Source: Archaeoglobi archaeon JdFR-42 (GTDB taxonomy: Archaea > Halobacteriota > Archaeoglobi > Archaeoglobales > JdFR-42). From it: a DNA stretch of 64,000 nucleotides. Position numbers and translations under genes: made by a program. The stretch covers positions 50,514 through 114,513 of the forward strand of contig MTND01000027.1 of NCBI GenBank assembly GCA_002010305.1, in the 5' to 3' direction. The notes beneath the pieces are model-generated. The model was given only the letters and a program-made list of their open reading frames with translations. It ran no database searches and was not told the origin of the DNA. Each line of letters opens with the position of its first letter. Within the stretch, counting starts at the first letter, position 1. Positions 1,779-63,345 of the stretch are shown here, in pieces.

Positions 1779-2312
1779 TCATTCTTTCGAGAGTTTGATT
1801 TCCGGTGTTATCCTTTCAGTCAGACAATAATAGGCAGGGCATCTTTCTTTTGTTATTTGGAGTAATTTATCAATTTCTTCATCGTTTGCCTCAGTTTTAA
1901 CAGCTATGTTGAAAGTTATTTTATCCAGAATTGGACTATCTGATAGGCCAAAACTTCTGGACATATCCATATGAGCATCTGCAGAGATAGCCAGTTCATC
2001 CAGTGTAATCCCTTCCATAGCAGCCCATTTTGCAAAAGTAGCAGCAAAACAAGCAACAGCACCCATTATACAGTACTGAACTGGATTGGGAGCGGTTCCA
2101 CCTCCACCTAGAAAAGACGGCTCATCGGCATAAAACGTAGTCTTCCCTCCCTCAAACTGAAGTTCTGATTCAAATTGAGGCCCCGACTCACCCAGTCTCC
2201 ATCTACCTGCAATTTTCATGGTCTTTTTAGCAGATACCGAATCTTTTTCAGCCTCTTTCAGTGTATGACTAAACTTTTCCAGATCAACTCTATTTACTTT
2301 CATCTTACTCAC
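1779..2312 (-). CDS. osmC: OsmC/Ohr family peroxiredoxin-like protein (likely ATG start at 2303)
   Basis: OsmC-fold length with two conserved Cys regions (NPVQYCIMGAVAC, KERCPAYY). The track start at 2312 is GTG; an ATG lies 3 codons downstream. Confidence 0.7.
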   Translation of the reverse strand: MSKMKVNRVDLEKFSHTLKEAEKDSVSAKKTMKIAGRWRLGESGPQFESELQFEGGKTTFYADEPSFLGGGGTAPNPVQYCIMGAVACFAATFAKWAAMEGITLDELAISADAHMDMSRSFGLSDSPILDKITFNIAVKTEANDEEIDKLLQITKERCPAYYCLTERITPEIKLSKE

Positions 2313-2338: not shown

Positions 2339-2421
2339 TTGTAAACCTCGTTTACTACTTGTCAACAAAGTTGACAATATGGCAAACTTCGTTTACTATT
2401 TGTCAGCATAGCTGACAATAT
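2339..2421. repeat. Tandem pair (41-bp period) of composite palindromic elements, subfamily I
   Basis: Unit A is 2341-2380 (GTAAAC-CTC-GTTTAC TACT TGTCAAC-AAA-GTTGACA ATAT). Unit B is 2382-2421 (GCAAAC-TTC-GTTTAC TATT TGTCAGC-ATA-GCTGACA ATAT). The units are 34/40 identical, and the P2 parts (2359-2377, 2400-2418) are perfect 8-3-8 palindromes. Confidence 0.8.
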
Positions 2422-2425
2422 CGTC

Positions 2426-2746
2426 TTATCCTATAACAACCACTTTATCCGAGACCTCTATTAGCTTCACAAGATCGTTCATAGTGGAGATTGGGCAGAG
2501 ACCTTCTTTCTGTTGTCGTATTTTAAGACATGTTCCACAAGCAAGAATTTCTCCACCAACTTCCAAGAATTTTTCCATCTCTGCCCGTACGTTAAATGTT
2601 CCTTCTTGGATGTTCTCTACCTCTACACCAGATCCTAGAAGAAATACTTTTACCTCATGTCCTGCTAATGTTGACGCAACAGCCAGTCTAAAACCATTCC
2701 ATGCTTTTTCAGGATCGTTTGTATTGATTATCAAACTTAATTTCAT
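2426..2746 (-). CDS. DsrE/DsrF-like sulfur-relay family protein
   Basis: About 106 aa with the small DsrE-like fold pattern (KLSLIINT..., FLLGSGV, ILACGTC). Its start overlaps the ArsR stop (ATGA). Confidence 0.55.
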   Translation of the reverse strand: MKLSLIINTNDPEKAWNGFRLAVASTLAGHEVKVFLLGSGVEVENIQEGTFNVRAEMEKFLEVGGEILACGTCLKIRQQKEGLCPISTMNDLVKLIEVSDKVVVIG

Positions 2747-3120
2747 CTCTTCACCTCATTTACAATTCTTTCTAATTTCCCAATGTGATCTAACAAAACC
2801 TCTCGCATTAAATCACAGGCTTTCAGAATTCTTTCATCTGAAATCCTGTATGTTACACTGCTTCCATGTCTTTTTGCCTCTAAGATTCCCTTCTCTCTCA
2901 TTACTGCAAGATGTTGCGAAACACTGGATTGAGGTAAATTCATCAGCTTGACAAGCTCGTTTACTGTCCTCTCGTTCTCTCTCAGTAGATCTATGATCTC
3001 AAGGCGCCTAGGATTTGTAAATACTTTGCATATGTTCGCATGGACTTCATAAATTTTCTGTTTTTCCATATATTTGGATATTGCGATATTTATGTATTTA
3101 AAGATTATGGTATCATGCAT
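2743..3120 (-). CDS. ArsR/SmtB family wHTH transcriptional regulator (probable start at M18, 3069)
   Basis: FTNPRRLEIIDLL...VNELVKLMNLPQSSVSQHLAVMREKGIL is the classic ArsR HTH. Confidence 0.8.
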   Translation of the reverse strand: MHDTIIFKYINIAISKYMEKQKIYEVHANICKVFTNPRRLEIIDLLRENERTVNELVKLMNLPQSSVSQHLAVMREKGILEAKRHGSSVTYRISDERILKACDLMREVLLDHIGKLERIVNEVKR

Positions 3121-17204: not shown

Positions 17205-17297
17205 GGTTTAATTAGTTAATTAAAAATCAAGTCGTTGGTTAGCAATTCATTTCTCTGTTAGAATGGCTCTAAATTTTAAAAAAGAAAATGGGTCTGA

Positions 17298-18461
17298 TTA
17301 TCTGAGCTCGTCCCACCGTCCTCTGCCTCCACCACCTCTCTGTATCAGAACCAGAATCAAGACTATCACTACGACTATCACTCCAATACCAACCCCTCCA
17401 ATTAGAAGCATAAGTTTTCTCTGTTTGGCCGCTTCTTCCTGCAATCGCTTTTGTTCCTCTTCTTTCTTCTTTTCCTCTTCTTGTTTTTTCTTGATTATGT
17501 CGTCTCTGAGTTTTATTGCTTCAGCTTTTATGGTATCAGAACCACTTATCGCTTTCTCAGCAAGCTCCTTTGCCTTGTTGTAATTACCTGCATCATACTG
17601 CTCTTGTGCATCGTCCACTTTGGATTTTATATCGTCCAGCAAGAATTTAAGAGTGGTTATAGAAGCACCTTCCCGTTCTGCCTCTAAAAGGGCTGTAGTG
17701 GCACTTTGAATTGACTCATCCGCTTTATCTATGGCATATTTTGCCATTGCTTTTTCAGCCTCTGTTGTCGCCTCACTTACTTTGTTTTCAGCCTCTTCAA
17801 TTTTTTGACTGGCAATGTCATAATCTCCAGCTTTTTTTGCGTTTACAGCCTCTTCTCTGAGATCCTTGGCCTCTTTAATGACCTCTTCAGCTTTTGTCAC
17901 ATCTGCACCATAATCTTTAGCGCCATCTATAACGATCTCAGCATTTGCAATATCGTCATCTAGGTTTGATATTTTGCTATCAAACAGTCCTGGATTAACA
18001 GCCTTAACGATTATGGGGTCAAGGAGATCTTCCTGACTATCTATCACGAATTTGACTAGTGTTATATTCTTAGTAAAAGACGCTACTGCAGGGACTTTCC
18101 CTGTCAATGTGAACTCAATACTTGAAATCCCATCATTAGTGTACCCAATTTCATCTGACAAAAAGCTTTCACTACTCTCGATAGGTCTTGAACCTCCTAT
18201 CTCTAGATTAATAGAGCCCACCCACTGGGCATTTTCCAGATCGGTAATGAAAGTAATAGGAGTTTTCCGTTTAGCGAGAACAGATGGCGGATCGGGATAT
18301 ATTGTCACTTTAACCTGTACAGTCTCACCTTCCTGATAAAAATCCTTAGATGGTATCAAAATAGTGGTCACTTTAAAATCATCAGCTTTCAGTCCATTTA
18401 CTGGAAGGACAGAAAGCAACAAAATTAACAGCAAAATACCTGTTCTAACTCTCATTTCCAT
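17298..18461 (-). CDS. Signal-peptide, coiled-coil, C-terminally TM-anchored envelope protein (unknown family)
   Basis: N-terminal RTGILLLILLLSVLPVNG, then a beta-rich ~150 aa region. Helical repeats follow with recurring AGDYD.A / AGNYNKA motifs, then a KE-rich stalk, the TM LMLLIGGVGIGVIVVVIVLILVLI and the tail QRGGGGRGRWDELR. Confidence 0.6.
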   Translation of the reverse strand: MEMRVRTGILLLILLLSVLPVNGLKADDFKVTTILIPSKDFYQEGETVQVKVTIYPDPPSVLAKRKTPITFITDLENAQWVGSINLEIGGSRPIESSESFLSDEIGYTNDGISSIEFTLTGKVPAVASFTKNITLVKFVIDSQEDLLDPIIVKAVNPGLFDSKISNLDDDIANAEIVIDGAKDYGADVTKAEEVIKEAKDLREEAVNAKKAGDYDIASQKIEEAENKVSEATTEAEKAMAKYAIDKADESIQSATTALLEAEREGASITTLKFLLDDIKSKVDDAQEQYDAGNYNKAKELAEKAISGSDTIKAEAIKLRDDIIKKKQEEEKKKEEEQKRLQEEAAKQRKLMLLIGGVGIGVIVVVIVLILVLIQRGGGGRGRWDELR

Positions 18462-18472
18462 CCCCTCCTCCT

Positions 18473-19624
18473 TTAAAATAATGGCTCAATATCTTCATCA
18501 AATAATTGCATCTTTCTCTCTTCTCTAATCTTTTCAGCCTCCTTAATACCTTCTTTCGCTTCTGAAGCTATTTTTTGAAGTTCTTTCACTCTCGGGACTT
18601 CAGTTACGTTTGCAAGAAGCACTACAGAGGCTATATACTTACTCCTTGTGGGGTAATCTCCAGCTCTGACTTCAACTCCGTTAATGTTACCTTCAAGCCA
18701 GCTCTTGGCTTTTTCAATTCCCTTTCTATCCAGATATTCGTGAGGACCTGCCACTAGAATTAAGGCTCTCTCAGCACTATGTATCTCACAAGGGATTGTT
18801 AATCGACCCAATGCAGCACGTCTAACGAGGGACGCAATCTTGGTGGCTGTATCACTCTCAAAGGCCTCTTCTTTTTCTCTGGAGAAAAAACTTCGTTTTT
18901 TCCGATTCTCTGCTATATAAGCAGCATATCCAATGGATGAAATTCCACCGCCCCTAAGGGTGTTTATGATTTCTGAGCTATCCACTACCATTTCTCCTAT
19001 CTGATCGATGTCGGATCCTTCTCCGGATCTGAAGAGGATTCCAAGCCTCCGGACGATCTCTTCGTTAATCTTTCTGTATGAGTCCCTGAGTGAGATCCCT
19101 TCATATTTCCAGGCTCCATTATCAAATAAAATTAAATTATCGGTTTCTTTAACCAGTGTCACCATTGAGCGAGCAGCATTGAGGGAGTAAAGGGAGCCTT
19201 CTTCTGGAGCTGGAAGAACTCCGAAGGCGTAAACCGGTTCAGAATACATTTTTGAAAGATAGTGCGCCAGAACAGGAGCTCCACCAGAGCCTGTTCCACC
19301 ACCCAGACCTGCAATAATTAGAAATGCATCAACATCGTGAGTTCCCATATTGTCTATTTCACTTAGAATAGTCTCTATCTCTTCCCGGGTAATTTTGGCA
19401 CCCATGGCATTATCAGTTCCCACACCATGTCCCTTGACGTAGGTCTGCCCTATGAGTATTCTATGTCTCATCGGAACATTTTTCAGCCCGAGGAGGTCTG
19501 TTCTTGCTGTGTTCACTGCTAGAGCTTGCATCTTGGTTTTATGGGTTGTTCGTTTCTCATGCTCAAGGAACAGATCCAGTATTTTGCCACCTGCTTGTCC
19601 AAAGCCAATTGCGAATACTCTCAT
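18473..19624 (-). CDS. cetZ: CetZ-like tubulin/FtsZ-superfamily GTPase
   Basis: T1 GFGQAGGK, T4 signature GLGGGTGSGGAP, VVDSSEIINTL (T7-like), acidic C-terminal tail DEDIEPLF. GGAG lies 8 nt upstream of the ATG. Confidence 0.85.
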   Translation of the reverse strand: MRVFAIGFGQAGGKILDLFLEHEKRTTHKTKMQALAVNTARTDLLGLKNVPMRHRILIGQTYVKGHGVGTDNAMGAKITREEIETILSEIDNMGTHDVDAFLIIAGLGGGTGSGGAPVLAHYLSKMYSEPVYAFGVLPAPEEGSLYSLNAARSMVTLVKETDNLILFDNGAWKYEGISLRDSYRKINEEIVRRLGILFRSGEGSDIDQIGEMVVDSSEIINTLRGGGISSIGYAAYIAENRKKRSFFSREKEEAFESDTATKIASLVRRAALGRLTIPCEIHSAERALILVAGPHEYLDRKGIEKAKSWLEGNINGVEVRAGDYPTRSKYIASVVLLANVTEVPRVKELQKIASEAKEGIKEAEKIREERKMQLFDEDIEPLF

Positions 19625-19680
19625 GTTAGATCTCCGTTGATTGTTGTTAGGTATTGATATTTAACTTTTTGGAACTTCTA

Positions 19681-19731
19681 TTGACAAAGTTATAAAGCTA
19701 TGCTTTACGAATTGTTATCTGTAACTGACAA
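19681..19731. repeat. Composite palindromic element, subfamily II (order P1-P2 on + strand)
   Basis: P1 at 19690-19710 is TTATAAAGC-TAT-GCTTTACGA. P2 at 19712-19731 is TTGTTATCTGTAACTGACAA. An extra TTGACAA half-site lies at 19681-19687. Confidence 0.75.
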
Positions 19732-19771
19732 AGGTGTGAAGATCAGCACTCTAGGCTGTAAATCTATAGCG

Positions 19772-20791
19772 TCATGCAAAGTCTTCAAGGGAGAGTCCTT
19801 TAATACCCGAGAACATAACCACTACTGACAGGTATTTCGATTTAGGGATAGGAAAATCGCCCCATCGAACCTCAGCCATTGGAGCTAGATCTTCTAGAGT
19901 TGTAATACATCCAAAAAATCCGTCCATGGTTATCTCCATTGGAGGACCGGTTATGATAATTAAAACACTACGTGCAGATTTGAAATCAGATCTTACACTG
20001 AGGTTATCATAAATGGCCTCTTTCATGAGTTCCAAGACTCTAGAGGTTTTGTATCCTGCAACATCCTTTTTTCGTCTGGAGAAAATTCGATCAAGGATGC
20101 TCCGGGGGATCTTTTTCCTTGCCACTCCCACTGCTGAGATCCCTCCTTTCTTAAGAGTATTGAAGAAATCTGATGTATCAATAACAACTTCAGAATGATC
20201 TTTTCGTTTGTATTCACTTTCTCCTACCACAGCAAACAGATTCATCAAATTAACGATTTTCATATTGATTTTTTTAAAATCCTCAAAAGAGGTTGCGGGT
20301 CTACCTTCCACTATGTTTTCAAAAAGAATGAGAGTATCCACCGCCTTTCCTGTATTCTGGATTTTGGAAGGAATTTTTTTAATAAAGAAATCGGGAGTAT
20401 CGATAGAAGGTACAACACCTATGGAAAACACAGGCTCTTCAAAAATCTCTTTCAATTTTTTAGCCAGTTTTTCTGCGATTATTGTTCCAAAATCACTTTC
20501 AAGGCTTAAAATTATCAAAAACGCATCGATGGGCTCCCTCTCTTCTGATAAAATATTTACAAGGGATATTAGGTCCTTTTTTTCGAGGAGATCTGTTTCC
20601 GATATGAATCCAGAAGGTATATGAAATTTCCTCTCTACAGGTACATTTTTAAGGCTTCTGAGGTGATTAATGTCGTTGTCTATCAGAAAACATCTGAACA
20701 AAGTATTCTCAGGACTTCTGATCCCCTCTTTTTGAAGGAGGTCGGCTATATTGCACCCAGCTCCACCACATCCTATGGCAAGAACTCTCAT
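19772..20791 (-). CDS. Divergent tubulin/CetZ-like paralog lacking the GGGTGSG nucleotide-binding signature
   Basis: Aligns without gaps to the neighbour around DAFLII. GLGGGTGSGGAPVLA is replaced by SLESDFGTIIAEKLA. T1-like GCGGAGCN and VIDTSDFFNTLKKGGISAVG are retained. Confidence 0.7.
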   Translation of the reverse strand: MRVLAIGCGGAGCNIADLLQKEGIRSPENTLFRCFLIDNDINHLRSLKNVPVERKFHIPSGFISETDLLEKKDLISLVNILSEEREPIDAFLIILSLESDFGTIIAEKLAKKLKEIFEEPVFSIGVVPSIDTPDFFIKKIPSKIQNTGKAVDTLILFENIVEGRPATSFEDFKKINMKIVNLMNLFAVVGESEYKRKDHSEVVIDTSDFFNTLKKGGISAVGVARKKIPRSILDRIFSRRKKDVAGYKTSRVLELMKEAIYDNLSVRSDFKSARSVLIIITGPPMEITMDGFFGCITTLEDLAPMAEVRWGDFPIPKSKYLSVVVMFSGIKGLSLEDFA

Positions 20792-20815
20792 TCGTCATCC
20801 CCATCCATATTTGTA

Positions 20816-20857
20816 TTGTCAATATAAACTGACATTTTGTAAAGCTATACTTTACAA
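20816..20857. repeat. Composite palindromic element, subfamily II (order P2-P1 on + strand)
   Basis: P2 at 20816-20834 is TTGTCAATATAAACTGACA. P1 at 20837-20857 is TTGTAAAGC-TAT-ACTTTACAA. Confidence 0.75.
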
Positions 20858-20950
20858 TAGTGTTGATGTGTATTTATTATAAGTATCTTTACTTGCCGTC
20901 ATACAAATGTAGAGAATTGAACCTATAGAACTCTTCACCTTTTGCAAACC

Positions 20951-20958
20951 TTTATATT
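20951..20958 (+). promoter_or_regulatory. TATA-like box for apgM
   Basis: TTTATATT lies about 25 nt upstream of the ATG at 20983. Confidence 0.4.
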
Positions 20959-20982
20959 TTTCTGAATGGTTGCCATCAGTAA

Positions 20983-22134
20983 ATGAGAATAAAATATTTG
21001 GTGGTTATAGGAGATGGAATGGCCGATTACCCCCTCTCTGATTTGAAGGGAAAGACACCTTTAGAGGTAGCTCATACTCCATTCCTGGACTGGATTACAG
21101 AAAACGGTGCTATGGGTATTACTTCCACTATTCCTCACGGATACGAGCCGGGAAGCGATATAGCCAATCTATCTATCCTAGGATATGATCCTGCTAGGTA
21201 TTACACCGGGAGAGGACCATTGGAAGCGCTTGGCAGAGGAATAGAAGTAGCGGAGAACTCTGTAATTTTTCGATGCAATCTGGTCTATGTAGAGAATGGT
21301 ATTATGAAAGATTATAGCGCAGGTCATATTTCTTCCAAAGAAGCAAAAAGGGCTCTCAAAGAGTTATCAGAGTTTTTAGATGAGAATGTACGATTGATTC
21401 CAGGGGTCAGTTACAGGAATTTACTGGTGGTTCATGGGAAATTTGGAGATATAATAACATACCCCCCCCATGATATAGTTGGTAGATCTATTACAGAGCA
21501 TTTTCCTCAAGGAGATCCAGAACTTGGAGAGATACTCACAACATTGATGAAAAAGTCCATTGAAATACTTCCGGAGATAACTAATAAGGCAAATATGATC
21601 TGGCCTTGGGGAGGTGGAAAACCAGCACACCTTCCCCCCTTTTCAAAAAAATATGGTGTCAGTGGTGGTATGATATCTGCAGTAGATCTTCTCAGGGGGA
21701 TTGGAAGGGCGGCAGGGATGGAAGTTATTGAAGTCCCTGGAGTAACAGGATATATCGATACCAATTATGAAGGAAAGGCGAAATATGCCATAGAAGCTCT
21801 TGAAAGGATGGATTTCGTCTACGTTCATGTGGAAGGAATTGATGAGGCTTCTCATGAGGGCGATCTCGATAAGAAGATCCAGGCGATAGAAGATTTTGAC
21901 AAACGATTTCTATCGATATTGCTGGATGAAATGGATCAGGAAAGAACACGCGTTTTAGTGATGCCAGATCATGCGACTCCTTTGAAAGTCCAGACTCACA
22001 CATCCGATCCTGTGCCTTTTGCTCTGTACGGGAAAGAAAAGGATTCAACTAAATCGTTCTCTGAAAAAAATGGAAAGACAGGTGCTTTTGGCCACATAAA
22101 TGCCCTTAAACTTATGGATTTACTCATCCAGTAG
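20983..22134 (+). CDS. apgM: 2,3-bisphosphoglycerate-independent phosphoglycerate mutase, archaeal type
   Basis: VVIGDGMADYP, GSDIANLSILGYDP, HVEGIDEASHEGD, MPDHATP. Confidence 0.9.
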   Translation: MRIKYLVVIGDGMADYPLSDLKGKTPLEVAHTPFLDWITENGAMGITSTIPHGYEPGSDIANLSILGYDPARYYTGRGPLEALGRGIEVAENSVIFRCNLVYVENGIMKDYSAGHISSKEAKRALKELSEFLDENVRLIPGVSYRNLLVVHGKFGDIITYPPHDIVGRSITEHFPQGDPELGEILTTLMKKSIEILPEITNKANMIWPWGGGKPAHLPPFSKKYGVSGGMISAVDLLRGIGRAAGMEVIEVPGVTGYIDTNYEGKAKYAIEALERMDFVYVHVEGIDEASHEGDLDKKIQAIEDFDKRFLSILLDEMDQERTRVLVMPDHATPLKVQTHTSDPVPFALYGKEKDSTKSFSEKNGKTGAFGHINALKLMDLLIQ

Positions 22135-22137
22135 ATA

Positions 22138-22178
22138 TTGTAAAGCTATGATTTACAATTGTTAATTTACATTGACAG
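22138..22178. repeat. Composite palindromic element, subfamily II (order P1-P2), filling the convergent apgM/cobT-like spacer
   Basis: P1 at 22138-22158 is TTGTAAAGC-TAT-GATTTACAA. P2 at 22159-22178 is TTGTTAATTTACATTGACAG. Positions 22152-22177 match the reverse complement of the 23322 copy at 25/26. Confidence 0.8.
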
Positions 22179-22180
22179 AT

Positions 22181-23248
22181 CTAACGCTGGAGACCTTTTT
22201 CAATTACTGCAGTATACTCTTTTTCAATTTGTTTCAATACAGTATTGCCGTCTAGTCCAGATAACAGGGCCAAAAGGACTGAGCCACCTGCACCGACCCC
22301 TTCCTTAACAAATCCCTCACTGTAGGCTCTTAATCCTGGTTTTGCAGATGCATCGAGACCGGGGTCAACAGCTACCATAGGCATATCCACTATGGAGGTG
22401 ATATCCGATGATTCATCTTCTGCCACGTATATGGTGGTGGCAAGGATACACCTTTTGAACCCGTCCTTGTCTATACTTTCCAGTAATTTTCCGACAGTTG
22501 CCATTTGCGTCCCTCCAGCCAGGACCACAGGGACGTTAGAGCCTTTCACAAGCCCAATGGTTGCTACCATCATGGGATCTCCGAATTTTACAAGAGCTTC
22601 CATGGGATCAGTATCTCCTGGCTGAAGATTCTCTCTTTTGAGAGCATCTGCCACAACTCTCTTTTTCAAGTCAGTAGGGTTCTCAGGCATGCTACTGGAG
22701 ACAAAGGACTCAACACCGAGTGCCCTTAATACAGCCAGAGCCGTGGTTGTCCCTCCAGGAATGCTCTCGCCGATCACAAGGAAATCGCATATTTTTGAAA
22801 ACTCTTTTCCGAGGATCTCTGATCTTTCCATACTCTCTCTAACAACTTCATGATCCATTGCACTTTTCTCAGAAATGTTATTTCCAGGGGGCATCTCTAG
22901 TGTTAGATATGGAATCTTGGGTTTGATGATACATCCTGATTCAACTACAAAGAATGGCGTCTTCGTTGTTCTCAACATAGAATATGTCATCAATGCTGGA
23001 GTTGGTTTACCATCCGGAGTAGCTGGGACACCAGGTATAGATTTACATTTTCCGTAATACAGTAACTCAGCATCAGCAGGAGGGGTGTATTTGATTAAAT
23101 CAGGGTTCTCTCCCGCTACGGTAATCCCAGGAATCTCAGCTGTCATTGTATTGGATATAACCGCTATAAAAAGAGGTCTTTTCTCTGATAATGTCTCAAT
23201 AATCTTTTTTCCTTCTTGACTTTTCTGGATAAATCTTACTTCTTGCAT
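22181..23248 (-). CDS. UPF0284/TIGR00303-like protein (archaeal CobT-type phosphoribosyltransferase candidate)
   Basis: ISNTMTAEIPGITVAGENP and GESIPGGTTTA blocks. I prefer the ATG at 23248; the track TTG start at 23341 runs into the palindromic element. Confidence 0.55.
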   Translation of the reverse strand: MQEVRFIQKSQEGKKIIETLSEKRPLFIAVISNTMTAEIPGITVAGENPDLIKYTPPADAELLYYGKCKSIPGVPATPDGKPTPALMTYSMLRTTKTPFFVVESGCIIKPKIPYLTLEMPPGNNISEKSAMDHEVVRESMERSEILGKEFSKICDFLVIGESIPGGTTTALAVLRALGVESFVSSSMPENPTDLKKRVVADALKRENLQPGDTDPMEALVKFGDPMMVATIGLVKGSNVPVVLAGGTQMATVGKLLESIDKDGFKRCILATTIYVAEDESSDITSIVDMPMVAVDPGLDASAKPGLRAYSEGFVKEGVGAGGSVLLALLSGLDGNTVLKQIEKEYTAVIEKGLQR

Positions 23249-23321
23249 GGTGACATGAATAATCAAAAGAATAAAAAAAGTTTTGGGATGTAATACATAT
23301 GTTTTACAAAAGTCCCTAATT

Positions 23322-23362
23322 TTGTCAATGTAAATTGACAATTGTAAAGCTATGCTTCATGA
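23322..23362. repeat. Composite palindromic element, subfamily II (order P2-P1)
   Basis: P2 at 23322-23341 is TTGTCAATGTAAATTGACAA. P1 at 23342-23362 is TTGTAAAGC-TAT-GCTTCATGA (right arm degenerate). Confidence 0.8.
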
Positions 23363-23444
23363 TTTTACTAGCTCTGTTAAAGGGACTATAAATCTATGAT
23401 TTGTCGAGTTATCAACTTTTACAGTCAAATTGGATTTTTGACTT

Positions 23445-24335
23445 TCAGTATCCGATCTCATCTAGGCGTTCCCTCAGGATGGATGCAGATATTTTCAGTC
23501 TCTCCAGCTCATCCTGAGTGAGTTCGTACTCTACGATCTCTTCAACACCATCCTTTCCAAGGATTGCTGGTACTCCAAGAGCCACATCAGTGATACCATA
23601 CTCTCCATTGAGGGTTACGCTTGTAGGGAACTCCTCGTTGGTATCTTCCAGTACTGCTTTTATCATCCTTGCCACACAGTTAGCAGGCGCATAAAAAGTT
23701 GCTCCTTTTCGTTTTATGATTTCCATACCTCTTTCCCGTGTTTTTTGTTCAATAGAATCCCAATCAACATCCCCGTTATCGATTTTAGATATACTCTTTG
23801 TAACCACCATGCTATCCCCGTGTTCTCCTAAAACATATGCTTTCACTTTCTTTGCCCCGGATAACAGCAATTGTTCTTTAAGCCTCATCGTATCATGGAT
23901 AGACCCCATCCCGAAAACTTCGCCTCTTCGCTTCCCACTTTCTTTATAGGCAACATAAGTAAGCAGATCCAAAGGATTTGTTATCATCAGGATCAGAGAA
24001 TTAGGGGCATACTCAATGACATTTTTTACTATGTCTTTTATAATACTAACATTGGTGCTTGTCAGATCTAGTCTTGTCATCCCAGGTTTTCTGGCCATAC
24101 CGGCCGAAATGGCTACAATATCTGAGTTTTTTATGAGACCATAGTCGTTGCCGCCGACGATTTTAACGTTTTTATCAATGGCAACAGCAGAAGTGCTTAG
24201 GTCCATCGCTTCTCCTTCTGCCAGTTCTTTAACGACATCAACGAGAGCAATACTTTCAATATCTATCATGTGAAGGCATGCAAAGGCAGATGTAGACCCT
24301 ATTCGTCCGGCGCCTATGAAACCTATTTTTGTCAT
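23445..24335 (-). CDS. mdh: Malate dehydrogenase (LDH-like MDH)
   Basis: GFIGAGRIGST Rossmann motif, AGMARKPGMTRLDL, ITNPLD, GEHGDS. Confidence 0.85.
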   Translation of the reverse strand: MTKIGFIGAGRIGSTSAFACLHMIDIESIALVDVVKELAEGEAMDLSTSAVAIDKNVKIVGGNDYGLIKNSDIVAISAGMARKPGMTRLDLTSTNVSIIKDIVKNVIEYAPNSLILMITNPLDLLTYVAYKESGKRRGEVFGMGSIHDTMRLKEQLLLSGAKKVKAYVLGEHGDSMVVTKSISKIDNGDVDWDSIEQKTRERGMEIIKRKGATFYAPANCVARMIKAVLEDTNEEFPTSVTLNGEYGITDVALGVPAILGKDGVEEIVEYELTQDELERLKISASILRERLDEIGY

Positions 24336-34677: not shown

Positions 34678-34688
34678 ACGAAAAGGTA

Positions 34689-34719
34689 ATATTGTCAGCT
34701 ATGCTGACAAATAGTAAAC
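34689..34719. repeat. Composite palindromic element, subfamily I; inverted copy of 2391-2421
   Basis: ATATTGTCAGCTATGCTGACAAATAGTAAAC is 31/31 identical to the reverse complement of 2391-2421. It contains the perfect palindrome TTGTCAGC-TAT-GCTGACAA (34692-34710). Confidence 0.85.
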
Positions 34720-34760
34720 CTTCATACAATATGATAAAAAATCTCCAGGAGTTGGAATAA

Positions 34761-35642
34761 ATGGATGGCATGGTAGTGTATATTGATGGAAAATTTGTTC
34801 CAAAAGATGAGGCGAAGATATCTGTATATGATCACGGTTTCCTGTACGGTGATGGTGTGTTCGAAGGAATCAGGGCATACGATGGAAGAGTATTCAGGCT
34901 TGATGAGCATGTAGACAGGATGTTCGACTCTGCCAGAGCTATTGACTTAGAAATGCCCGTTTCTAGAGAAAAACTGAAGTCTATTATACTTGAATGTCTC
35001 AGAAGGAATAACCTTCGAAATGCATATATCCGTCCCATCGTTACCAGAGGAGTGGGTGATCTTGGACTTGATCCAAGAAAATGTAAAAAGCCTTCTCTGA
35101 TAGTAATAACTCAAGAGTGGGGAGCCATGTATGGAGACCTGTATGATCGTGGTCTGAGTGTTGTTACTGTGTGTATCAGACGGAACTCATATGATGCTCT
35201 ACCCCCTAACATCAAATCTCTGAACTATCTTAATAATATACTGGCTAAAATTGAGGCCAACGTGAAAGGAGGAGACGAAGCTATAATCTTGGACAGCAAT
35301 GGATTTGTATCGGAAGGTTCTGGAGACAATATTTTTGTGATTAAAAAAGGAGTTGTAACAACGCCTCCAACAGTTAACAATCTAAAAGGAATCACTAGAG
35401 AAGTTGCTATAGAAATTATTGAGGAGATCGGACTGCCATTCAAAGAGGCCAACCTTGGGTTGTTTGATTTATATACTGCGGATGAAATGTTCGTAACAGG
35501 TACGGCAGCAGAAATTGCACCCATAACGCGTATAGATGGGAGACCAGTTGGTGATGGAAAAGTTGGAAAGATTACTAAGCGTTTGATGGAAGAGTTCAAA
35601 AAAAGGACAGAAGTAGAGGGGACGCCAATTTATGAGGGATGA
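34761..35642 (+). CDS. ilvE: Branched-chain amino acid aminotransferase (fold type IV PLP)
   Basis: [51 protein letters not shown] upstream. Confidence 0.85.
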
Positions 35643-44687: not shown

Positions 44688-44803
44688 GGAACATAGTTGG
44701 TATCTTTATGATTTAAAGATTTTTGATTTGAGCTTTTAATCTCTTACGAAATACTTTCGAAACACACAGGATCCATTAAAATTTGACAAGGATATTGAGA
44801 AAT

Positions 44804-45439
44804 ATGAGAAATAAGACCTTCAACCTTATCCCAGTATCTTTCCTGAACTCTTTTCATTACTGCAAGCATCAGGTATATCTTGCAGGAGTATTAGGAATTA
44901 AACCACATTATTCTGTTAATAGACGAATTATAAAAGGGACCTTGGTTCATCGAATTATCAGAAAAACCTGTGAAAATATGGGAGATTTAATCAAGGACAT
45001 ACGATTAGCTTATACCATCTCAAAAAAAGAAGATAGAACTGTATGGGGCCGAGAAGTCCCTGTTGTAGGGAAGACATTGTATGGCATCGTCGATGAATTG
45101 TGGATTAGTCCAGATGGTGCACTAGTAATAGAATATAAACCAAGTATAAGGGCATATAAAGGACATAAATGCCAAGTGATGGGATACTGTTTTGCGTTAA
45201 TGGAATCTCTTAATGTAAGCCTAAATAGTTTTGAAATTAGAGGAAAGATAGTAAGCTGGGAGTATAGTAGTGTGCTATGGGAAAAAAGACTCTCAAAAAC
45301 GATTATAAGAAAAATTAAAAAGACTGTAGCCGAAATTTTTGATATTCTCAACGAAAAAACACCTTCAAATAGAGTAAAAAGTGGTCTCTGTAGTACATGC
45401 TCTTATCATTATTACTGTTCATATCGAGGCCTCGAATGA
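44804..45439 (+). CDS. Cas4-family PD-(D/E)xK nuclease with 4-Cys cluster (stand-alone)
   Basis: N-terminal Cys (FHYCKHQVYL), GTLVH, D...EYK (IVDEL...VIEYKPS), QVMGY, C-terminal CSTCSYHYYC. No cas genes or CRISPR array in the window. Confidence 0.65.
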   Translation: MRNKTFNLIPVSFLNSFHYCKHQVYLAGVLGIKPHYSVNRRIIKGTLVHRIIRKTCENMGDLIKDIRLAYTISKKEDRTVWGREVPVVGKTLYGIVDELWISPDGALVIEYKPSIRAYKGHKCQVMGYCFALMESLNVSLNSFEIRGKIVSWEYSSVLWEKRLSKTIIRKIKKTVAEIFDILNEKTPSNRVKSGLCSTCSYHYYCSYRGLE

Positions 45440-56024: not shown

Positions 56025-57203
56025 ATGGGTAAGAAAGCAGAAGAATTACCCCAGTATAAACAATTCGCAGAATGGATAGAGAACAGGCATGACTATGCCA
56101 AAAAGTGGCAACAGAATAACGGTGGGAAAGTGGTTGGGTACCTATGTACATATGTCCCAGAGGAAATCCTTTACGCAGGAGGAGTGCTTCCGGTCAGGAT
56201 TCTAGGGTCCCATGAACCAGAGAGTATAACAAGGCCATACCTTCATGACATGTACTGCCCTTTCTGCCATGATTGTCTGGCTCAGGGTTTAGAGGGAAGG
56301 TTTGATTATCTTGATGGAATCATGCTTGCCCAGTCATGTCTACACTTAAGACAAGTGTTTTTCACTTGGGAAGAGCGTGTCCCTGTAGACTGGAGCTATT
56401 ACATGCATTTCCCTCATGGCGTAAATAACAATCATGCTGCTGAATATCTCAAAGGAGAGCTTGAGAAATTTAAAGTTGCTGTAGAGGAATGGACAGGCAC
56501 TACCATAACCAACAAAGAGCTGGATGATGCCATTGAAGTGTACAATAAGAATCGACAGCTTATGAAACAGGTATATGAATTTAGAAAACTTGAAAACCCG
56601 CCGATTACTGGCCTTCATGCTATGGAGATGGTTATCTCCTCACAAATGGTAGATAAAAAAGAGCATAACGAAGTTCTGGAATCTCTTCTGGAAGATTTAA
56701 AGGATGCAGAAGTGGATAGGGATACCGGAACCAGGCTTATGATCATAGGAAGTGAAGATGACGACAGGGAGTTCTTTAAGATGGTAGAATACGAACAGAA
56801 TTATTCTGCTACATTTGTGTTTGAAGAACACTGTACCGGAGCGAGGTATTTCTGGGATGAGGTAAGACCTGAAGAGGACAGGCTGATGGCTATTGCAAAA
56901 AGATATGTTAACAGAGTTCCATGTCCAGCTAAGGACTGGCCGACTTATGGATTCTATGGAAGAAGAAGATTCAATTGGATTGAAAAGTGGGTAAAAGAGT
57001 TTAACGTTGACGGAGCGATCATAATGCAGCAGAAATTCTGTGATCCCCACGAACTGGACATCCCTTCTTTGAGAGAATTGCTGGATAATTTGAACATACC
57101 CCATCTGTTCCTAGAATTTGACATAACAGTCCCTGTTGGACAGTTCAGGACTCGTGTTGAGGCTTTTCTTGAGTCTATTGGGGAGGATGATTTGTTCTTT
57201 TAG
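56025..57203 (+). CDS. Benzoyl-CoA reductase/2-hydroxyacyl-CoA dehydratase family subunit (BcrC/BzdN-like)
   Basis: GKVVGYLCTYVPEEILYAGGVLPVR N-terminal block of the HgdB/BcrC family. GAGGTG SD upstream. Confidence 0.7.
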   Translation: MGKKAEELPQYKQFAEWIENRHDYAKKWQQNNGGKVVGYLCTYVPEEILYAGGVLPVRILGSHEPESITRPYLHDMYCPFCHDCLAQGLEGRFDYLDGIMLAQSCLHLRQVFFTWEERVPVDWSYYMHFPHGVNNNHAAEYLKGELEKFKVAVEEWTGTTITNKELDDAIEVYNKNRQLMKQVYEFRKLENPPITGLHAMEMVISSQMVDKKEHNEVLESLLEDLKDAEVDRDTGTRLMIIGSEDDDREFFKMVEYEQNYSATFVFEEHCTGARYFWDEVRPEEDRLMAIAKRYVNRVPCPAKDWPTYGFYGRRRFNWIEKWVKEFNVDGAIIMQQKFCDPHELDIPSLRELLDNLNIPHLFLEFDITVPVGQFRTRVEAFLESIGEDDLFF

Positions 57204-58559
57204 GTGGTGAGAGGCATGGCAAAAGAGTTTAAAGTTGAACCATTAAAGGTATGGAATGATTTTAAGAAGTACAGAGAACAGTATTACCGAGATTATCTTG
57301 AAGCAAAGGACAATGGGGCAGTCAGGTGGGCAGGTTCAGCCTGGGCCTTTGATGCAGTTCCCGCTGGTCTTGGGGAAGACGTGTATCCACTGACAGGAGA
57401 GCCATATGGTGCAACGGTTGCGTTTTTCAAGGATTTCTCCAGAAGGGCTCTTGAGAAAGCAGAAAGAGCTGGTGTACCAAGAGATCTATGTGGATATCTC
57501 AGGAATTATTGGGGTTCAATAATGATGGACAAGTATGTTCTCACCGATGGTACCGAAGTTGAACCATTCCCGAAACCCGATTTCAATTACACCATTCACA
57601 TCTGCTGTACTCATGCAAAGTGGTATCATAGGGCTGGTGAGCTGGAAGGAGATGTACCCACTTATGCCGTAGATATCTCAGTAGGCCCTGGATATCTTCT
57701 TGACGACAGAAAAATTAACTATGTGGTTAGACAGCTCGAAGACTCCATCAAGTGGATGGAACAGATAACTGGCAGAGAATATGACGACGAGCTATTGATA
57801 AAAGCAGTGCTGGCAGAAGCAGATTCCATGTCTACATGGGCAAAAATATGTAAGCTTAACCAAAATATACCTGCTCCTCTTGAAGAGAAATCAATGTTTA
57901 CTCTCTATGCTCTACTCGTTCTTCATAGAGCCGATCCGAGGGTGGCAGAACTGTACAACAAACTGTATGAAGAGACCCAAGATAGAGTAAAGAGAGGTAT
58001 AGGCGCTATAAACAACGAACAGTTCAGATTCCTGACAGACAACCCTCCACCTTGGGCTTTCCTGAATGTTTATAGATATCTGGAAAAAGAATATGGAGCT
58101 GTCTCACTTGGGTCAGTATATACTTTTGGCTTGGAAGGTGCATGGCTTGGGATGGATGAAAAAGGAGAGACATGGAGATGGGAACCAGCTCCTACACCTG
58201 AAGAAGCTGGAGTCGAGATATCCAATCGAGAAGATGCACTGCGATGGACTGCTGAGTTCAATCTCAGGTACAGGCCGGGGTGGCAGCATCCGTACTCCCA
58301 TAAAATCAGAAAAATCGAGACCCTCCAGATGATAAAGGATTGGAAAGCAGATGCAATGATCATGCACCTCAACAGAGGGTGCGAGTTATGGGCTATGTCA
58401 GAACTCGAGGTGAGAGATTATTTGGTGAAACATAATATCCCTGTTGCTACTTACGAGGGCAACATGGCAGACCCAAGAGAATTCGATGAAGCAAGGACAT
58501 GGAACGTGATAGATTCCTTTATGGAGAGCCTTGGAATCAAGAAATTATCCAAGCAGTAA
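57204..58559 (+). CDS. Benzoyl-CoA reductase/2-hydroxyacyl-CoA dehydratase family subunit (BcrB/BzdO-like)
   Basis: 451 aa, abuts the previous gene. HICCTHAKWY and MHLNRGCE Cys contexts are typical of this family. Confidence 0.65.
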   Translation: MVRGMAKEFKVEPLKVWNDFKKYREQYYRDYLEAKDNGAVRWAGSAWAFDAVPAGLGEDVYPLTGEPYGATVAFFKDFSRRALEKAERAGVPRDLCGYLRNYWGSIMMDKYVLTDGTEVEPFPKPDFNYTIHICCTHAKWYHRAGELEGDVPTYAVDISVGPGYLLDDRKINYVVRQLEDSIKWMEQITGREYDDELLIKAVLAEADSMSTWAKICKLNQNIPAPLEEKSMFTLYALLVLHRADPRVAELYNKLYEETQDRVKRGIGAINNEQFRFLTDNPPPWAFLNVYRYLEKEYGAVSLGSVYTFGLEGAWLGMDEKGETWRWEPAPTPEEAGVEISNREDALRWTAEFNLRYRPGWQHPYSHKIRKIETLQMIKDWKADAMIMHLNRGCELWAMSELEVRDYLVKHNIPVATYEGNMADPREFDEARTWNVIDSFMESLGIKKLSKQ

Positions 58560-58565
58560 AAGGAG

Positions 58566-59345
58566 GTGATCAAATTGATTACAGCCGGTATTGATGTGGG
58601 CTCTAAATATACAAAGGCAGTGGTATTAAAAAATGGGGCAGAAATTGTTGGGTATGCTAACATAAGGACTGGAATGGATCACGAGAAATCAGCCAGAGAG
58701 GCCCTTGAAGAGGCCTTGAAAGCTGCAGGGATTAACAGAGACCAAGTAGACAAAATAATAGCAACCGGATTTGGAAAAACTTCAGTGCCTTTTGCTGATG
58801 ATGAGATATCTCAGGTAGTTGCAGCTGGTAAAGGTGGGTACTTTGCCAGACCGTCTACCCGAACTGTGATTGAAGTAGGTGCTGAAGAGTCCCGTGGAAT
58901 AAAGCTCGCAGAAGATGGTAAGATCAGGGATTTCGCTCTAGCAGATAAATGTGCTGCTGGCGCAGGCTCTTTCACAGATGCTATGGCACGGTATTTAGAG
59001 GTCCCCCTTGAAGAATTTGGGCAACTCTCTCTAAGATCCAAAGGGGCGGCTGCCATGAACGCTCAATGTGTTATTTTTGCTGAGTCAGAAGTGGTCTCTC
59101 TTGTACATCAGAACGTACCTAAAGAAGAGATCTCAAGAGCGATCCATGATGCAATAGCTGACAGAGTCGCTTCTATTGTCCGGAGAGTGGGTATAGAAGA
59201 TGATGTACTAGTAGTCGGAGGCCTTGCCAATGATCCAGGGTTCATCGACTCTCTGAAAAGAGAACTGAACACAGAGGTGTATCTGCCCGAAATTATTGCT
59301 CCTGAATACATTCCAGCTTTAGGAGCAGCTCTTATGGAGGAATAA
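58566..59345 (+). CDS. BcrAD/BadFG-type ATPase (electron-activating subunit 1)
   Basis: GIDVGSKYTKAVV, ADKCAAGAGSF and NAQCVIFAESEV (cluster-bridging Cys pair). Confidence 0.8.
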   Translation: MIKLITAGIDVGSKYTKAVVLKNGAEIVGYANIRTGMDHEKSAREALEEALKAAGINRDQVDKIIATGFGKTSVPFADDEISQVVAAGKGGYFARPSTRTVIEVGAEESRGIKLAEDGKIRDFALADKCAAGAGSFTDAMARYLEVPLEEFGQLSLRSKGAAAMNAQCVIFAESEVVSLVHQNVPKEEISRAIHDAIADRVASIVRRVGIEDDVLVVGGLANDPGFIDSLKRELNTEVYLPEIIAPEYIPALGAALMEE

Positions 59346-59352
59346 ACCTGAG

Positions 59353-60252
59353 GTGGTGAAAATGGCAGAAGCAATTCAGGAAGGAGAATACTGGAGATGG
59401 CCTGAAACAGTCTGGGTTGATGAAAGCAAGAACTGGAAGGAGGCTGAGGTAATCAGCTGTGGGATCGATCTTGGCTCTGTGAGTACACAGGCAGTGATAA
59501 TGCTAGATGGTGAGCTTTATGCTTATGCAAGCTTCAGAACTGGCTCCAGCAGTCTTGACAGCTCTGAGAGAGTTGTGAAAGCGGTTCTGGAAAAGATCGG
59601 AGATCTTAAACTTGAAGACATTCACTACATTGTCGGAACGGGATATGGACGAGTTAGTATTCCCTTTGCTCATAAAACTATCACAGAGATTGCATGTCAT
59701 GGTAGGGGTGCTAATTTTCTATATGGGCCAACTGTGAGAACTATATTGGACATGGGTGGTCAGGACTTGAAGGCCATCAAAGTTGATGAAAGGGGCAAAG
59801 TAGTCAATTTCCTCATGAACGACAAGTGTGCTGCGGGAACCGGAAGGGGTGTTGAAGTAATGGCAGATCTTCTTGCAATTCCCATTACAGAAGTGGGGCC
59901 TTTATCCCTCCAGGTCGAGGAAGAGCCAGAGCCAGTCAGTACAACTTGTGTGGTGTTTGCAAAATCCGAAGTGTTGGGTCTTATGAGGAAAGGCTGGCCC
60001 AAAGAAAGAATTCTGGCTGCATATTTCAGAGCTATGGCATCCCGTGTAGTTGAGCTACTGGAGAGAGTAGGAGTAGAAGAGGACTTTGCCATTACTGGGG
60101 GTATTGCAAAGAACATTGGAATGGTAAAAAGGATCGAGAATATGCTCGGTGTAAAAGCACTGAAACCGGACTTCGACACCCAGATTGCAGGAGCGGTAGG
60201 TGCTGCTCTGTTTGGCAGAGCCCTCTATCTTAAGGGGAAAAAGAAAAAATAA
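59353..60252 (+). CDS. BcrAD/BadFG-type ATPase (electron-activating subunit 2, with N-terminal extension)
   Basis: GIDLGSVSTQAVI, NDKCAAGTGRG and STTCVVFAKSEV. Clearly a distinct paralog of the preceding gene. Confidence 0.8.
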   Translation: MVKMAEAIQEGEYWRWPETVWVDESKNWKEAEVISCGIDLGSVSTQAVIMLDGELYAYASFRTGSSSLDSSERVVKAVLEKIGDLKLEDIHYIVGTGYGRVSIPFAHKTITEIACHGRGANFLYGPTVRTILDMGGQDLKAIKVDERGKVVNFLMNDKCAAGTGRGVEVMADLLAIPITEVGPLSLQVEEEPEPVSTTCVVFAKSEVLGLMRKGWPKERILAAYFRAMASRVVELLERVGVEEDFAITGGIAKNIGMVKRIENMLGVKALKPDFDTQIAGAVGAALFGRALYLKGKKKK

Positions 60253-62538: not shown

Positions 62539-63345
62539 ATGAAGACGAAAGATTTAATAAGGCAATTAGAAATGTTGAAAAGGATGGACATTGAATTTGA
62601 CGAAGATTTCATTGCTGCTCTCAGAATTTATGGACTTACTGCCTATGAAGCAAAAGCTTATTATGTCCTGCTTACGATGGAAGAAGCTACCGCTGGAGCT
62701 GTAGCCAGAAGATCTGGAGTTCCACAGCAGCGTATTTATGATACACTCTCATCCCTTGAAAGAAAAGGCTTTATACAGTCCAGAAATACAACTCCGAAGC
62801 TATATTCTCCACTTGGAGTTAAACGTGCTTTGAATAGTAGAATTCGCCAGTTAAGAGCCGAATTCGAGGCACGGGAACAGGAACTCCTGGAGATGATACC
62901 TATTCTGGTCGAGAAAGCCCCCTTTCCTTCAGGAGATAGGAGTTCCAAGTCACATGTATGGATTTTAGAAAGTGAAAATTCAATTGTGGGGCGTATAATA
63001 GAAATGATTTCCTCTGCTCAACATGAAGTACGACTCGCAGGAGACCGACCCCTTTTCACTCTGAATTGCAAAGGTGTATTTCAGCGCTATTTGAATAAAG
63101 GGGTAACGTTGTATGCCCTTGGGACTTTTGAACGAGTGTGCAGAAAAGAGATCGAATCTGTAGGTGGAAAAATCAAAGAAGCTAAAGTTGATTACCATTA
63201 TATTCTCATTATAGATAATCTGAAATTGTTATTGGTATATTTTGATGAGGATGGAGTCCCTTCTGCCCTTTACACTGAAAACGAAGATATTGTAAATCCG
63301 CATTTACATTACTTTGAGATCCTGTGGAATAAAGGAAAGAGCTGA
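62539..63345 (+). CDS. TrmB family transcriptional regulator
   Basis: LRIYGLTAYEAKAYYVLL...GVPQQRIYDTLSSLERKGF wHTH plus C-terminal domain. The ATG lies 1 nt after the YeiH stop. Confidence 0.8.
   Translation: MKTKDLIRQLEMLKRMDIEFDEDFIAALRIYGLTAYEAKAYYVLLTMEEATAGAVARRSGVPQQRIYDTLSSLERKGFIQSRNTTPKLYSPLGVKRALNSRIRQLRAEFEAREQELLEMIPILVEKAPFPSGDRSSKSHVWILESENSIVGRIIEMISSAQHEVRLAGDRPLFTLNCKGVFQRYLNKGVTLYALGTFERVCRKEIESVGGKIKEAKVDYHYILIIDNLKLLLVYFDEDGVPSALYTENEDIVNPHLHYFEILWNKGKS

Follow-up and report, generated by a model that had tools for sequence, protein, structure and literature searches.

Genes and palindromes in four consecutive spacers

The stretch of DNA analysed here (the window) is 64,000 nucleotides long and comes from contig MTND01000027.1 (positions 50,514 to 114,513) of assembly GCA_002010305.1, Archaeoglobi archaeon JdFR-42. 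Five genes that follow one another in the window encode CetZ, a divergent CetZ paralog, the cofactor-independent phosphoglycerate mutase ApgM, an archaeal CobT and a dehydrogenase of the Ldh/Mdh family (Table 1). Each of the four spacers between them carries a composite of abutting palindromes, here called e1 to e4. These composites belong to a small family of paired palindromes that lie just upstream of predicted promoters and are most likely regulator-binding arrays. The finding is a modest and lineage-restricted one and does not amount to a new class of element.

The gene identities proposed in the first-pass annotation of the window were roughly right, as judged from Pfam matches and, for CobT, from family assignment. 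The apgM gene is the only plus-strand gene in an otherwise minus-strand cluster; its likely start is the ATG at 21019, and one gene caller likewise takes this start, which gives 371 residues. For cobT, gene call P0127 begins at the ATG at 23248 and yields 355 residues, and other gene callers begin at a TTG at 23341 and yield 386 (22181–23341). Since the orthologs have about 340 residues, the 355-residue product is nearer to their length and the longer call appears over-extended; the e4 palindrome at 23322–23341 is therefore probably intergenic rather than coding. The e3 composite fills the entire 46-nt convergent spacer from the apgM stop to the cobT stop, and is indeed the one element that had been placed in a 3′–3′ spacer.

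The consensus of the first palindrome, P1 (TTGTAAAGCTATGCTTTACAA, up to three mismatches), has exactly four matches in the window, all on the plus strand and one in each spacer, as against none in 100 dinucleotide-preserving shuffles. The second palindrome, P2 (TTGTYAAT-N4-ATTGACAA), is separated from P1 by 0–1 nt in every spacer, and on the plus strand the order from e1 to e4 is P1-P2, P2-P1, P1-P2, P2-P1. The eight positions and this order had been given in the first-pass annotation, and a pattern scan of the whole 64 kb confirmed them. The inverted match of 25 out of 26 positions between e3 and e4 is likewise real, and forms part of an inverted repeat of 35 nt with 86% identity.

P1 is a 21-bp dyad with half-sites 9 bp apart, its arms in e2 and e3 being TTGTAA and TTACAA; P2 can be written as TTGTCA-N8-TGACAA. 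Dyads of the form TTGTAAA..TTTACAA are designated A and those of the form TTGTCAA..TTGACAA are designated B, and each arm contains six to nine complementary positions. A scan for TTGT[A/C]AA..TT[G/T]ACAA revealed an additional dyad in e4 and a possible one in e1, giving the plus-strand series B′-A-B, B-A, A-B and A′-B-A for the four spacers. The left half of the weak e1 dyad, B′, overlaps the conserved region of the B recognition element (BRE) in the predicted cetZ promoter, and B′ may be just a stray half-site, TTGACAA. The alternating order thus stands as first described, but a strict two-part mirror alternation is an incomplete description because of the possible third dyad in e1 and the extra P1-like palindrome in e4. 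With four elements, neither the alternation (chance about 1/8) nor the constant P1 centre (chance about 1/8) is significant individually.

A short motif, TAAATCTAT(A/G), is common to 19755–19771 and 23383–23403, lying just past the stop of the paralog in the first case and about 40 nt past that of mdh in the second. It resembles the left arm and centre of P1 (TAAAGCTATG), of which it may represent a further, degenerate copy.

Table 1. Genes, dyads and predicted promoter elements. Positions refer to the window unless contig L132 is named; distances are counted from the ATG of the gene.
Feature	Position	Strand	Sequence	Remarks
CetZ	18473–19624	−		Pfam
Divergent CetZ paralog	19772–20791	−		Pfam
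ApgM, cofactor-independent phosphoglycerate mutase		+		Pfam
Archaeal CobT, TIGR00303/UPF0284 family		−		homologue search with the “cobT-like” protein
Ldh/Mdh-family dehydrogenase	23445–24335	−		Pfam
Predicted cetZ BRE/TATA	19658–19672	−	CCAAAAAGTTAAATA	TATA-like box −41 to −34 from ATG 19624
e1 possible third dyad, B′	19669–19687		TTGGAACTTCTATTGACAA	2 mismatches to TTGTMAA-N5-TTKACAA; weak
e1 P1, A-type dyad	19690–19710		TTATAAAGCTATGCTTTACGA	same in sister strain
e1 P2, B-type dyad	19712–19731		TTGTTATCTGTAACTGACAA	same in sister strain
e2 P2, B-type dyad	20816–20835		TTGTCAATATAAACTGACAT	same in sister strain
Best TATA-like box of paralog	20821–20828	−	TTTATATT	centre of e2 P2
e2 P1, A-type dyad	20837–20857		TTGTAAAGCTATACTTTACAA	sister strain TTGTAAAGCATAGCGTTACAA, centre flipped
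Predicted apgM TATA box	20951–20958	+	TTTATATT	preceded by AAACC; promoter 20946–20958
e3 P1, A-type dyad	22138–22158		TTGTAAAGCTATGATTTACAA	convergent apgM/cobT spacer
e3 P2, B-type dyad	22159–22178		TTGTTAATTTACATTGACAG	agrees with inverted e4 P2 at 19/20 positions
cobT T/A-rich box	23270–23279	−	TTTTTTTATT	precedes ATG 23248
e4 P3, A-like dyad	23288–23309		ATGTAATACATATGTTTTACAA	directly upstream of T/A-rich box 23270–23279
e4 P2, B-type dyad	23322–23341		TTGTCAATGTAAATTGACAA	perfect 8-bp stem
e4 P1, A-type dyad	23342–23362		TTGTAAAGCTATGCTTCATGA	
Four-dyad array, A-B-A-B	2339–2418		TTGTAAACCTCGTTTACTA, TTGTCAACAAAGTTGACAA, TGGCAAACTTCGTTTACTA, TTGTCAGCATAGCTGACAA	centres 20, 21 and 20 bp apart; period about 41 nt
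B and degenerate A pair	34692–34729		B TTGTCAGCTATGCTGACAA, A TAGTAAACCTTCATACAA	upstream of operon with class IV (IlvE-like) aminotransferase gene (34761–35642, +)
Eighth composite, A-B	L132 12583–12625		TTGTAAAAACATGGTTTTACAA g TTATCAACAATAGTTGACGA	about 2.0 kb past right end of window
Proximal dyad, cetZ	edge 45 nt before ATG		GTTAAATA	TATA-like box at −41
Proximal dyad, CetZ paralog	edge 25 nt before ATG		TTTATATT	TATA-like box inside P2
Proximal dyad, cobT	edge 40 nt before ATG			T/A-rich box at −31 to −22
Proximal dyad, OsmC	edge 36 nt before ATG			several weak A/T-rich matches, −42 to −18
Proximal dyad, IlvE-like aminotransferase	edge 34 nt before ATG			no box above scan threshold; A-rich stretch after dyad
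Proximal dyad, ARMT1-like	edge 56 nt before ATG		TTTAAATT	TATA-like box at −39

Recurrence of the architecture

Together with 9.3 kb of contiguous DNA on the left (L131) and 9.6 kb on the right (L132), about 83 kb was inspected. It contains eight A+B composites, every one of them intergenic; none lies in the left extension and one in the right. The geometry is not peculiar to the cetZ cluster: the same composite occurs near both the left end and the middle of the window and again just past its right end (Table 1). Of the 29 spacers in the window that measure 40 nt or more, 6 carry arrays and the others hold background-level matches only (three mismatches). The arrays consist of two to four dyads each. 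Adjacent dyad centres lie 19.5–22 bp apart, apart from one gap of 33 bp, or about three turns of the helix.

The four-dyad array is situated upstream of an OsmC gene (1779–2312, minus strand) and a few nucleotides downstream of an ArsR-DsrE operon, whose DsrE stop lies at 2426. The eighth composite occupies the divergent spacer between luciferase-like and ARMT1-like genes. Distant copies can be closely alike: positions 34680–34719 match the inverted sequence of 2391–2430 with 90% identity over 40 nt. Four copies of a 9-mer, AGCTATGCT (complement AGCATAGCT), are present in the 83 kb, each in the centre of an A/B dyad; the 9-mer occurs in A-type and B-type arms, and in the centre of 34680–34729 it matches the P1 centre. 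The A/B copies fall into at least three rather different sequence types.

Searches further afield added nothing to the family. Scanning a genome collection with a loose pattern, TTRTAAAGCTATNNTTYAYRA, turned up at least 117 isolated chance matches to unrelated bacteria, and a stricter one, TTGTAAAGCTATRMTTTACAA, gave three unrelated chance matches and nothing else in a metagenome collection without the source contig. A BLAST search with e4 against phage and archaeal-virus sequences found no match, and literature searches on the motif and on archaeal systems of repetitive extragenic palindromes (REPs) brought up nothing relevant.

A solitary A-type palindrome, TATTGTAAATCCGCATTTACATTA, lies at 63288–63311, inside the 3′ end of a TrmB-family gene (62539–63345), and is the sole member of the A/B family found in coding sequence.

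Position relative to predicted promoters

Six arrays share a common placement. Their gene-proximal dyad edge lies 25–56 nt before the ATG, at a TATA-like box or slightly upstream of one; where such a box can be assigned, it falls within the proximal dyad or 0–17 nt downstream of it. The elements had been described as inconsistently placed relative to start codons. This does not hold for cetZ, the paralog and cobT, with edges 45, 25 and 40 nt before the ATG, and the three further arrays are alike in this respect. The predicted BRE/TATA motif of cetZ (GTTCCAAAAAGTTAAATA) is conserved in a relative with 56% protein identity (L120). Because it has been kept independently in so distant a relative, e1 appears to be anchored immediately upstream of a real promoter.

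The e2 composite lies 160–200 nt upstream of the apgM start, and the predicted apgM TATA box lies about 95 nt beyond it. By its position, e2 is to be assigned to the predicted promoter of the paralog and not to that of apgM. The promoter-proximal dyad may be either A or B, and this absence of fixed polarity is as expected for symmetric protein sites.

The location of the arrays also bears on a role in RNA. Paired hairpins in 3′ untranslated or intercistronic regions could stabilise, terminate or process transcripts, and in five of the seven array-bearing spacers (those with e1, e3 and e4 and with the two arrays at 2339 and 34692) a stop codon on the transcribed strand precedes the composite, e3 taking up all the space between two stop codons. 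Moreover, sequence inspection indicates that several mismatches in the P1 arms would be G–U pairs in a plus-strand transcript. The e2 and L132 composites, however, occupy divergent 5′–5′ spacers upstream of both predicted promoters, and thus a purely RNA-level role cannot be general. The composites show no evident strand preference with respect to the gene upstream, no run of five T residues was seen after the hairpins, and an Rfam search of 19500–23600 (E ≤ 1) returned no match. Each composite, as a single strand, is predicted to form two weak hairpins of −4.3 to −7.9 kcal/mol at 37 °C (z-scores −1.5 to −3.9). Marginal at that temperature, they should fare worse in a hot habitat, and the source fluid was presumably at about 65 °C. 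The weakness of the hairpins and the hot ridge-flank source together disfavour a structure-dependent role, and we consider function at the RNA level improbable.

Sister strain and more distant relatives

The window, in its sequence as in its arrangement, is identical in all assemblies of the population: Ga0314848_000026 (JGI), contig RSFX01000002.1 of GCA_003935005.1, SRR3723048 and SRR12613063. The third of these derives from crustal fluid of the Juan de Fuca Ridge flank (PMC6474303). A sister strain is represented by a 1.8-kb contig (L129) with about 97% DNA identity, on which the paralog has 98% protein identity. Both e1 palindromes and e2 P2 are unchanged in this strain; the e1 spacer has six substitutions outside the palindromes, a weak contrast (P ~0.18). 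Its e2 P1 reads TTGTAAAGC-ATA-GCGTTACAA, compared with TTGTAAAGC-TAT-ACTTTACAA in the window, five differences in six positions. The flanks of e2 P1 are otherwise identical, and the order and orientation of the genes around the paralog are the same.

Quasi-palindromes are prone to perfection or inversion through template switching, and the altered e2 P1 would be explained most simply by a loop inversion or template switch together with two substitutions. P1 had been said to read the same way on the plus strand in all copies. That is so for the four in the window, but with the centre flipped in the sister strain, the reading TAT varies even between members of one species. Given the third dyads, this flip and the recurrence of the same architecture elsewhere, the mirror-alternating geometry and the constant strand of P1 are not meaningful features. 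The comparison does provide a clean natural flip of a palindrome centre between near-identical strains, and it cautions against functional readings of centre orientation.

The same comparison bears on the possibility that the inverted composites are recombination sites, through which the paralog, apgM and cobT could be inverted or exchanged as cassettes. The composites on either side of each of the three genes have opposite orders, e3 and e4 form an inverted repeat at 86% identity, apgM alone lies on the plus strand, and the P1 centre differs between strains. Yet the core of a recombinase site needs a fixed asymmetric centre, and the 3-nt centre of P1 flips in the sister strain without rearrangement. 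The asymmetric, oriented centre and nearby recombinase that mark tyrosine-recombinase cores (dif/lox-like) or integron attC sites were not found, and no recombinase gene is present among the gene calls and Pfam matches, which cover most of the 83 kb. All assemblies of the population have the identical arrangement, the genes concerned are housekeeping genes, and elsewhere single copies of these composites lie at predicted promoters and bracket nothing. The insulator, gene-bracketing and recombination-site roles listed in the first-pass annotation thus gained no support, and site-specific recombination in particular seems very unlikely indeed.

Beyond the sister strain, the relatives in the protein database are distant, with none of intermediate divergence. 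A homologue search with the paralog yielded the one strain at 98% and then nothing above 56%, those with CobT and ApgM yielded nothing between 100% and 57% identity, and a close-relative look-up with gene call P0127 gave no match. The nearest relatives, whose orthologous spacers lack the arrays, share just about 56% protein identity. No A/B elements were found in 42 kb of Archaeoglobus veneficus and another Archaeoglobi-like contig. Comparison of orthologous loci, as had been recommended, gave a divided result: the elements are kept in the strain of about 97% identity, except for the e2 P1 centre, and are absent from relatives of about 56%. The gene upstream of the paralog in L120 encodes a Na/Ca exchanger rather than ApgM, so that synteny is not conserved there and does not bear on a possible inversion of apgM out of an ancestral co-directional cluster.

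Arrays for a regulator, and alternatives

The non-random, intergenic distribution of the dyads fits best with binding arrays. We put at roughly one half the probability that P1 and P2 are double-stranded operator or upstream-activating arrays for one or more putative dimeric or tetrameric regulators. Operator arrays for a helix-turn-helix (HTH) protein of this kind were among the roles first listed, and are the best-fitting of them, with dyad centres about two turns apart and adjacent to predicted TATA boxes. One dyad-recognising transcription factor, or two that cooperate, would bind the A and B dyads. Dimers bound about 21 bp apart, or two helical turns, would sit on one side of the helix, where contact between them is possible, and protein bound at or just upstream of BRE/TATA might either block or recruit TBP and TFB. 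The genes served would be cetZ, its paralog and cobT, together with those for OsmC, the IlvE-like aminotransferase and the ARMT1-like protein.

Candidate regulators may be named by proximity only: an ArsR-family protein (2743–3120), a TrmB-family protein (62539–63345) and a second TrmB just past the window. The ArsR gene heads the operon that ends a few nucleotides from the four-dyad array. If the operator reading is true, the arrays are the signature of a regulon, in an uncultured archaeon of the subseafloor crust related to Archaeoglobi, that would include the cytoskeletal cetZ genes; we know of no regulators of cetZ in this lineage. They would also supply concrete DNA baits for the factor, of 42 bp for a composite and 80 bp for the four-dyad array. 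The array at 2339–2418 is a good bait for the ArsR-family protein.

Several considerations weigh against this proposal. The promoters are themselves predictions, assigned by sequence inspection or crude consensus, and the genes downstream of the arrays have no obvious functional theme in common. The e3 array, in its 3′–3′ spacer, is the sole one with no adjoining promoter. The spacing from arm to arm differs between dyads, from 19 to 22 bp, a loose range for one dimeric factor. Over 31–40 nt, copies that lie far apart are almost the same (90% and 86%), including a centre that the protein would not contact, and this looks more like copying than like convergent evolution of sites. All four bases occur at arm position 8 among the dyad types (G–C, T–A, A–T and C–G), with complementarity in 16 of 19 dyads, and such covariation does point to a structure or a copying mechanism. 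A protein that reads only the outer TTGTMAA needs no pairing at position 8, and so an extra mutational explanation is required. Finally, the spacer between the paralog and cetZ in L120 contains no A/B elements, and a syntenic luciferase-like/ARMT1-like spacer in a relative with 56% identity in ApgM (L135) contains only a weak ATTGTT-N7-AACAAT.

Some of these difficulties could be met within the operator model. The e3 composite might have arisen from e4 by a recent inverted duplication and play no part at a promoter, or it might serve as a protein roadblock where two transcription units converge. Template-switch or hairpin-loop mutation could have produced the near-perfect symmetry and the flipped centre as by-products with no function of their own.

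In the main rival reading the elements are a lineage-specific family of short palindromic repeats, akin to REPs and bacterial interspersed mosaic elements (BIMEs), on which any regulatory effect would be secondary. REPs are defined as extragenic palindromes of 20–40 bp that occur in clusters of alternating units (PMC2817692), with a GTAG or CGTC tag (PMC3733652). Such repeats would spread or be homogenised by a dedicated HUH/Y1 enzyme, by gene conversion or by template switching, and would accumulate in spacers. The A/B elements, too, are extragenic palindromes of 20–40 bp in clustered mosaics, and their alternation of two palindrome types recalls BIMEs (PMC2817692). Near-identity of distant copies extends to centres and non-palindromic flanks (40 nt at 90%, 35 nt at 86%), and the 9-mer AGCTATGCT/AGCATAGCT is restricted to A/B dyads, where it appears in both arm types. 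The covarying inner stem, the copy in the convergent spacer and the absence from relatives, as for species-specific repeats, are also in keeping with such a family. At the density seen, eight composites per roughly 83 kb, a genome of about 2 Mb would be expected to contain well over 100.

Other properties are unlike those of REPs, which form G+C-rich stable hairpins, number more than 100 homogeneous copies, are associated with a gene for a REP-associated tyrosine transposase (RAYT) and lie mostly at 3′ ends. The stems here are AT-rich and thermodynamically weak, their arms begin with TTGT and carry no tag, and the copies belong to several quite different sequence types rather than to one homogeneous family. 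Six arrays occupy a narrow zone upstream of TATA-like boxes. The 19 kb of flanking DNA (9.3 kb left, 9.6 kb right) gave one more composite. No gene for a RAYT (Y1 transposase) or IS200/IS605-like enzyme is found among the gene calls and Pfam matches that span most of the 83 kb, and REP/RAYT systems have been described for bacteria. On balance a repeat family is an unlikely source of the elements. If it were the true one, elements of the REP/BIME type would be extended to Archaea. More doubtful still is the bolder proposal that the A/B pairs are the first archaeal system of this kind, a genome-wide family copied or homogenised by a dedicated enzyme acting on single-stranded DNA or by template switching and co-opted as promoter-upstream modules, or, in a variant, that inverted pairs mediate gene-sized inversions.

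Comparison with known regulatory sites

Archaeal arrays for dimeric HTH regulators include the two-site upstream activating sequence (UAS) of Ptr2, an Lrp-family protein of Methanocaldococcus, the three regularly spaced boxes of Ss-LrpB and the TGM sites of TrmB/TrmBL1. The operator reading of the A/B arrays is consistent with the general plan of such systems. The arrays consist of two or more dyad sites, each about 20 bp long and set whole helical turns apart, over or just upstream of predicted BRE/TATA elements and with no intrinsic polarity, and the dyad symmetry, intergenic restriction and helical phasing of adjacent sites are all found here. They depart from that plan in the alternation of two dyad types, in symmetry that extends nearly to the centre and in the one copy in a convergent spacer. 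Their sequence matches none of the Ptr2, Ss-LrpB or TrmB/TrmBL1 sites.

A resemblance to the Lrp-type box had been suggested. The P1 half-site TTGTAA is indeed that of LrpB, and agrees with TTGYAW and WTRCAA. The Ss-LrpB consensus TTGYAWWWWWTRCAA is, however, a 15-bp box with half-sites 3 bp apart, compared with 9 bp in P1; because of this difference P1 does not belong to the Lrp-type boxes. The TyrR boxes of Enterobacteria, TGTAAA-N6-TTTACA, occur as paired strong and weak boxes, and the A-type arms share both the TGTAAA..TTTACA sequence and the pairing of adjacent boxes. The spacer is N7 in P1 and ranges from N5 to N10 across the A-type family, compared with N6 in TyrR boxes. TyrR belongs, to our knowledge, to a bacterial family of sigma-54-type activators that is not expected in archaea, and the likeness is almost certainly coincidental.

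Other features of the region

Directly after cetZ, following a gap of 11 nt, lies a gene for a 387-residue protein with no Pfam match (17298–18461). A gene with no Pfam match likewise follows cetZ in L120, and its product may be a conserved partner of CetZ. A perfect palindrome, TTTAATTAGTTAATTAAA, is present at 17207–17224 in a convergent spacer; its sequence is unrelated to the A/B family.

Two metabolic clusters were also noted, one at 1–1650 of the window continued at 8126–10909 of L131, and the other at 56025–60252. One of the two encodes a corrinoid protein, a URO-D-like methyltransferase and an MtrH-like protein, and the other a 2-hydroxyacyl-CoA dehydratase and BcrAD-type activator. 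A gene for a Cas4-like nuclease lies at 44783–45439.

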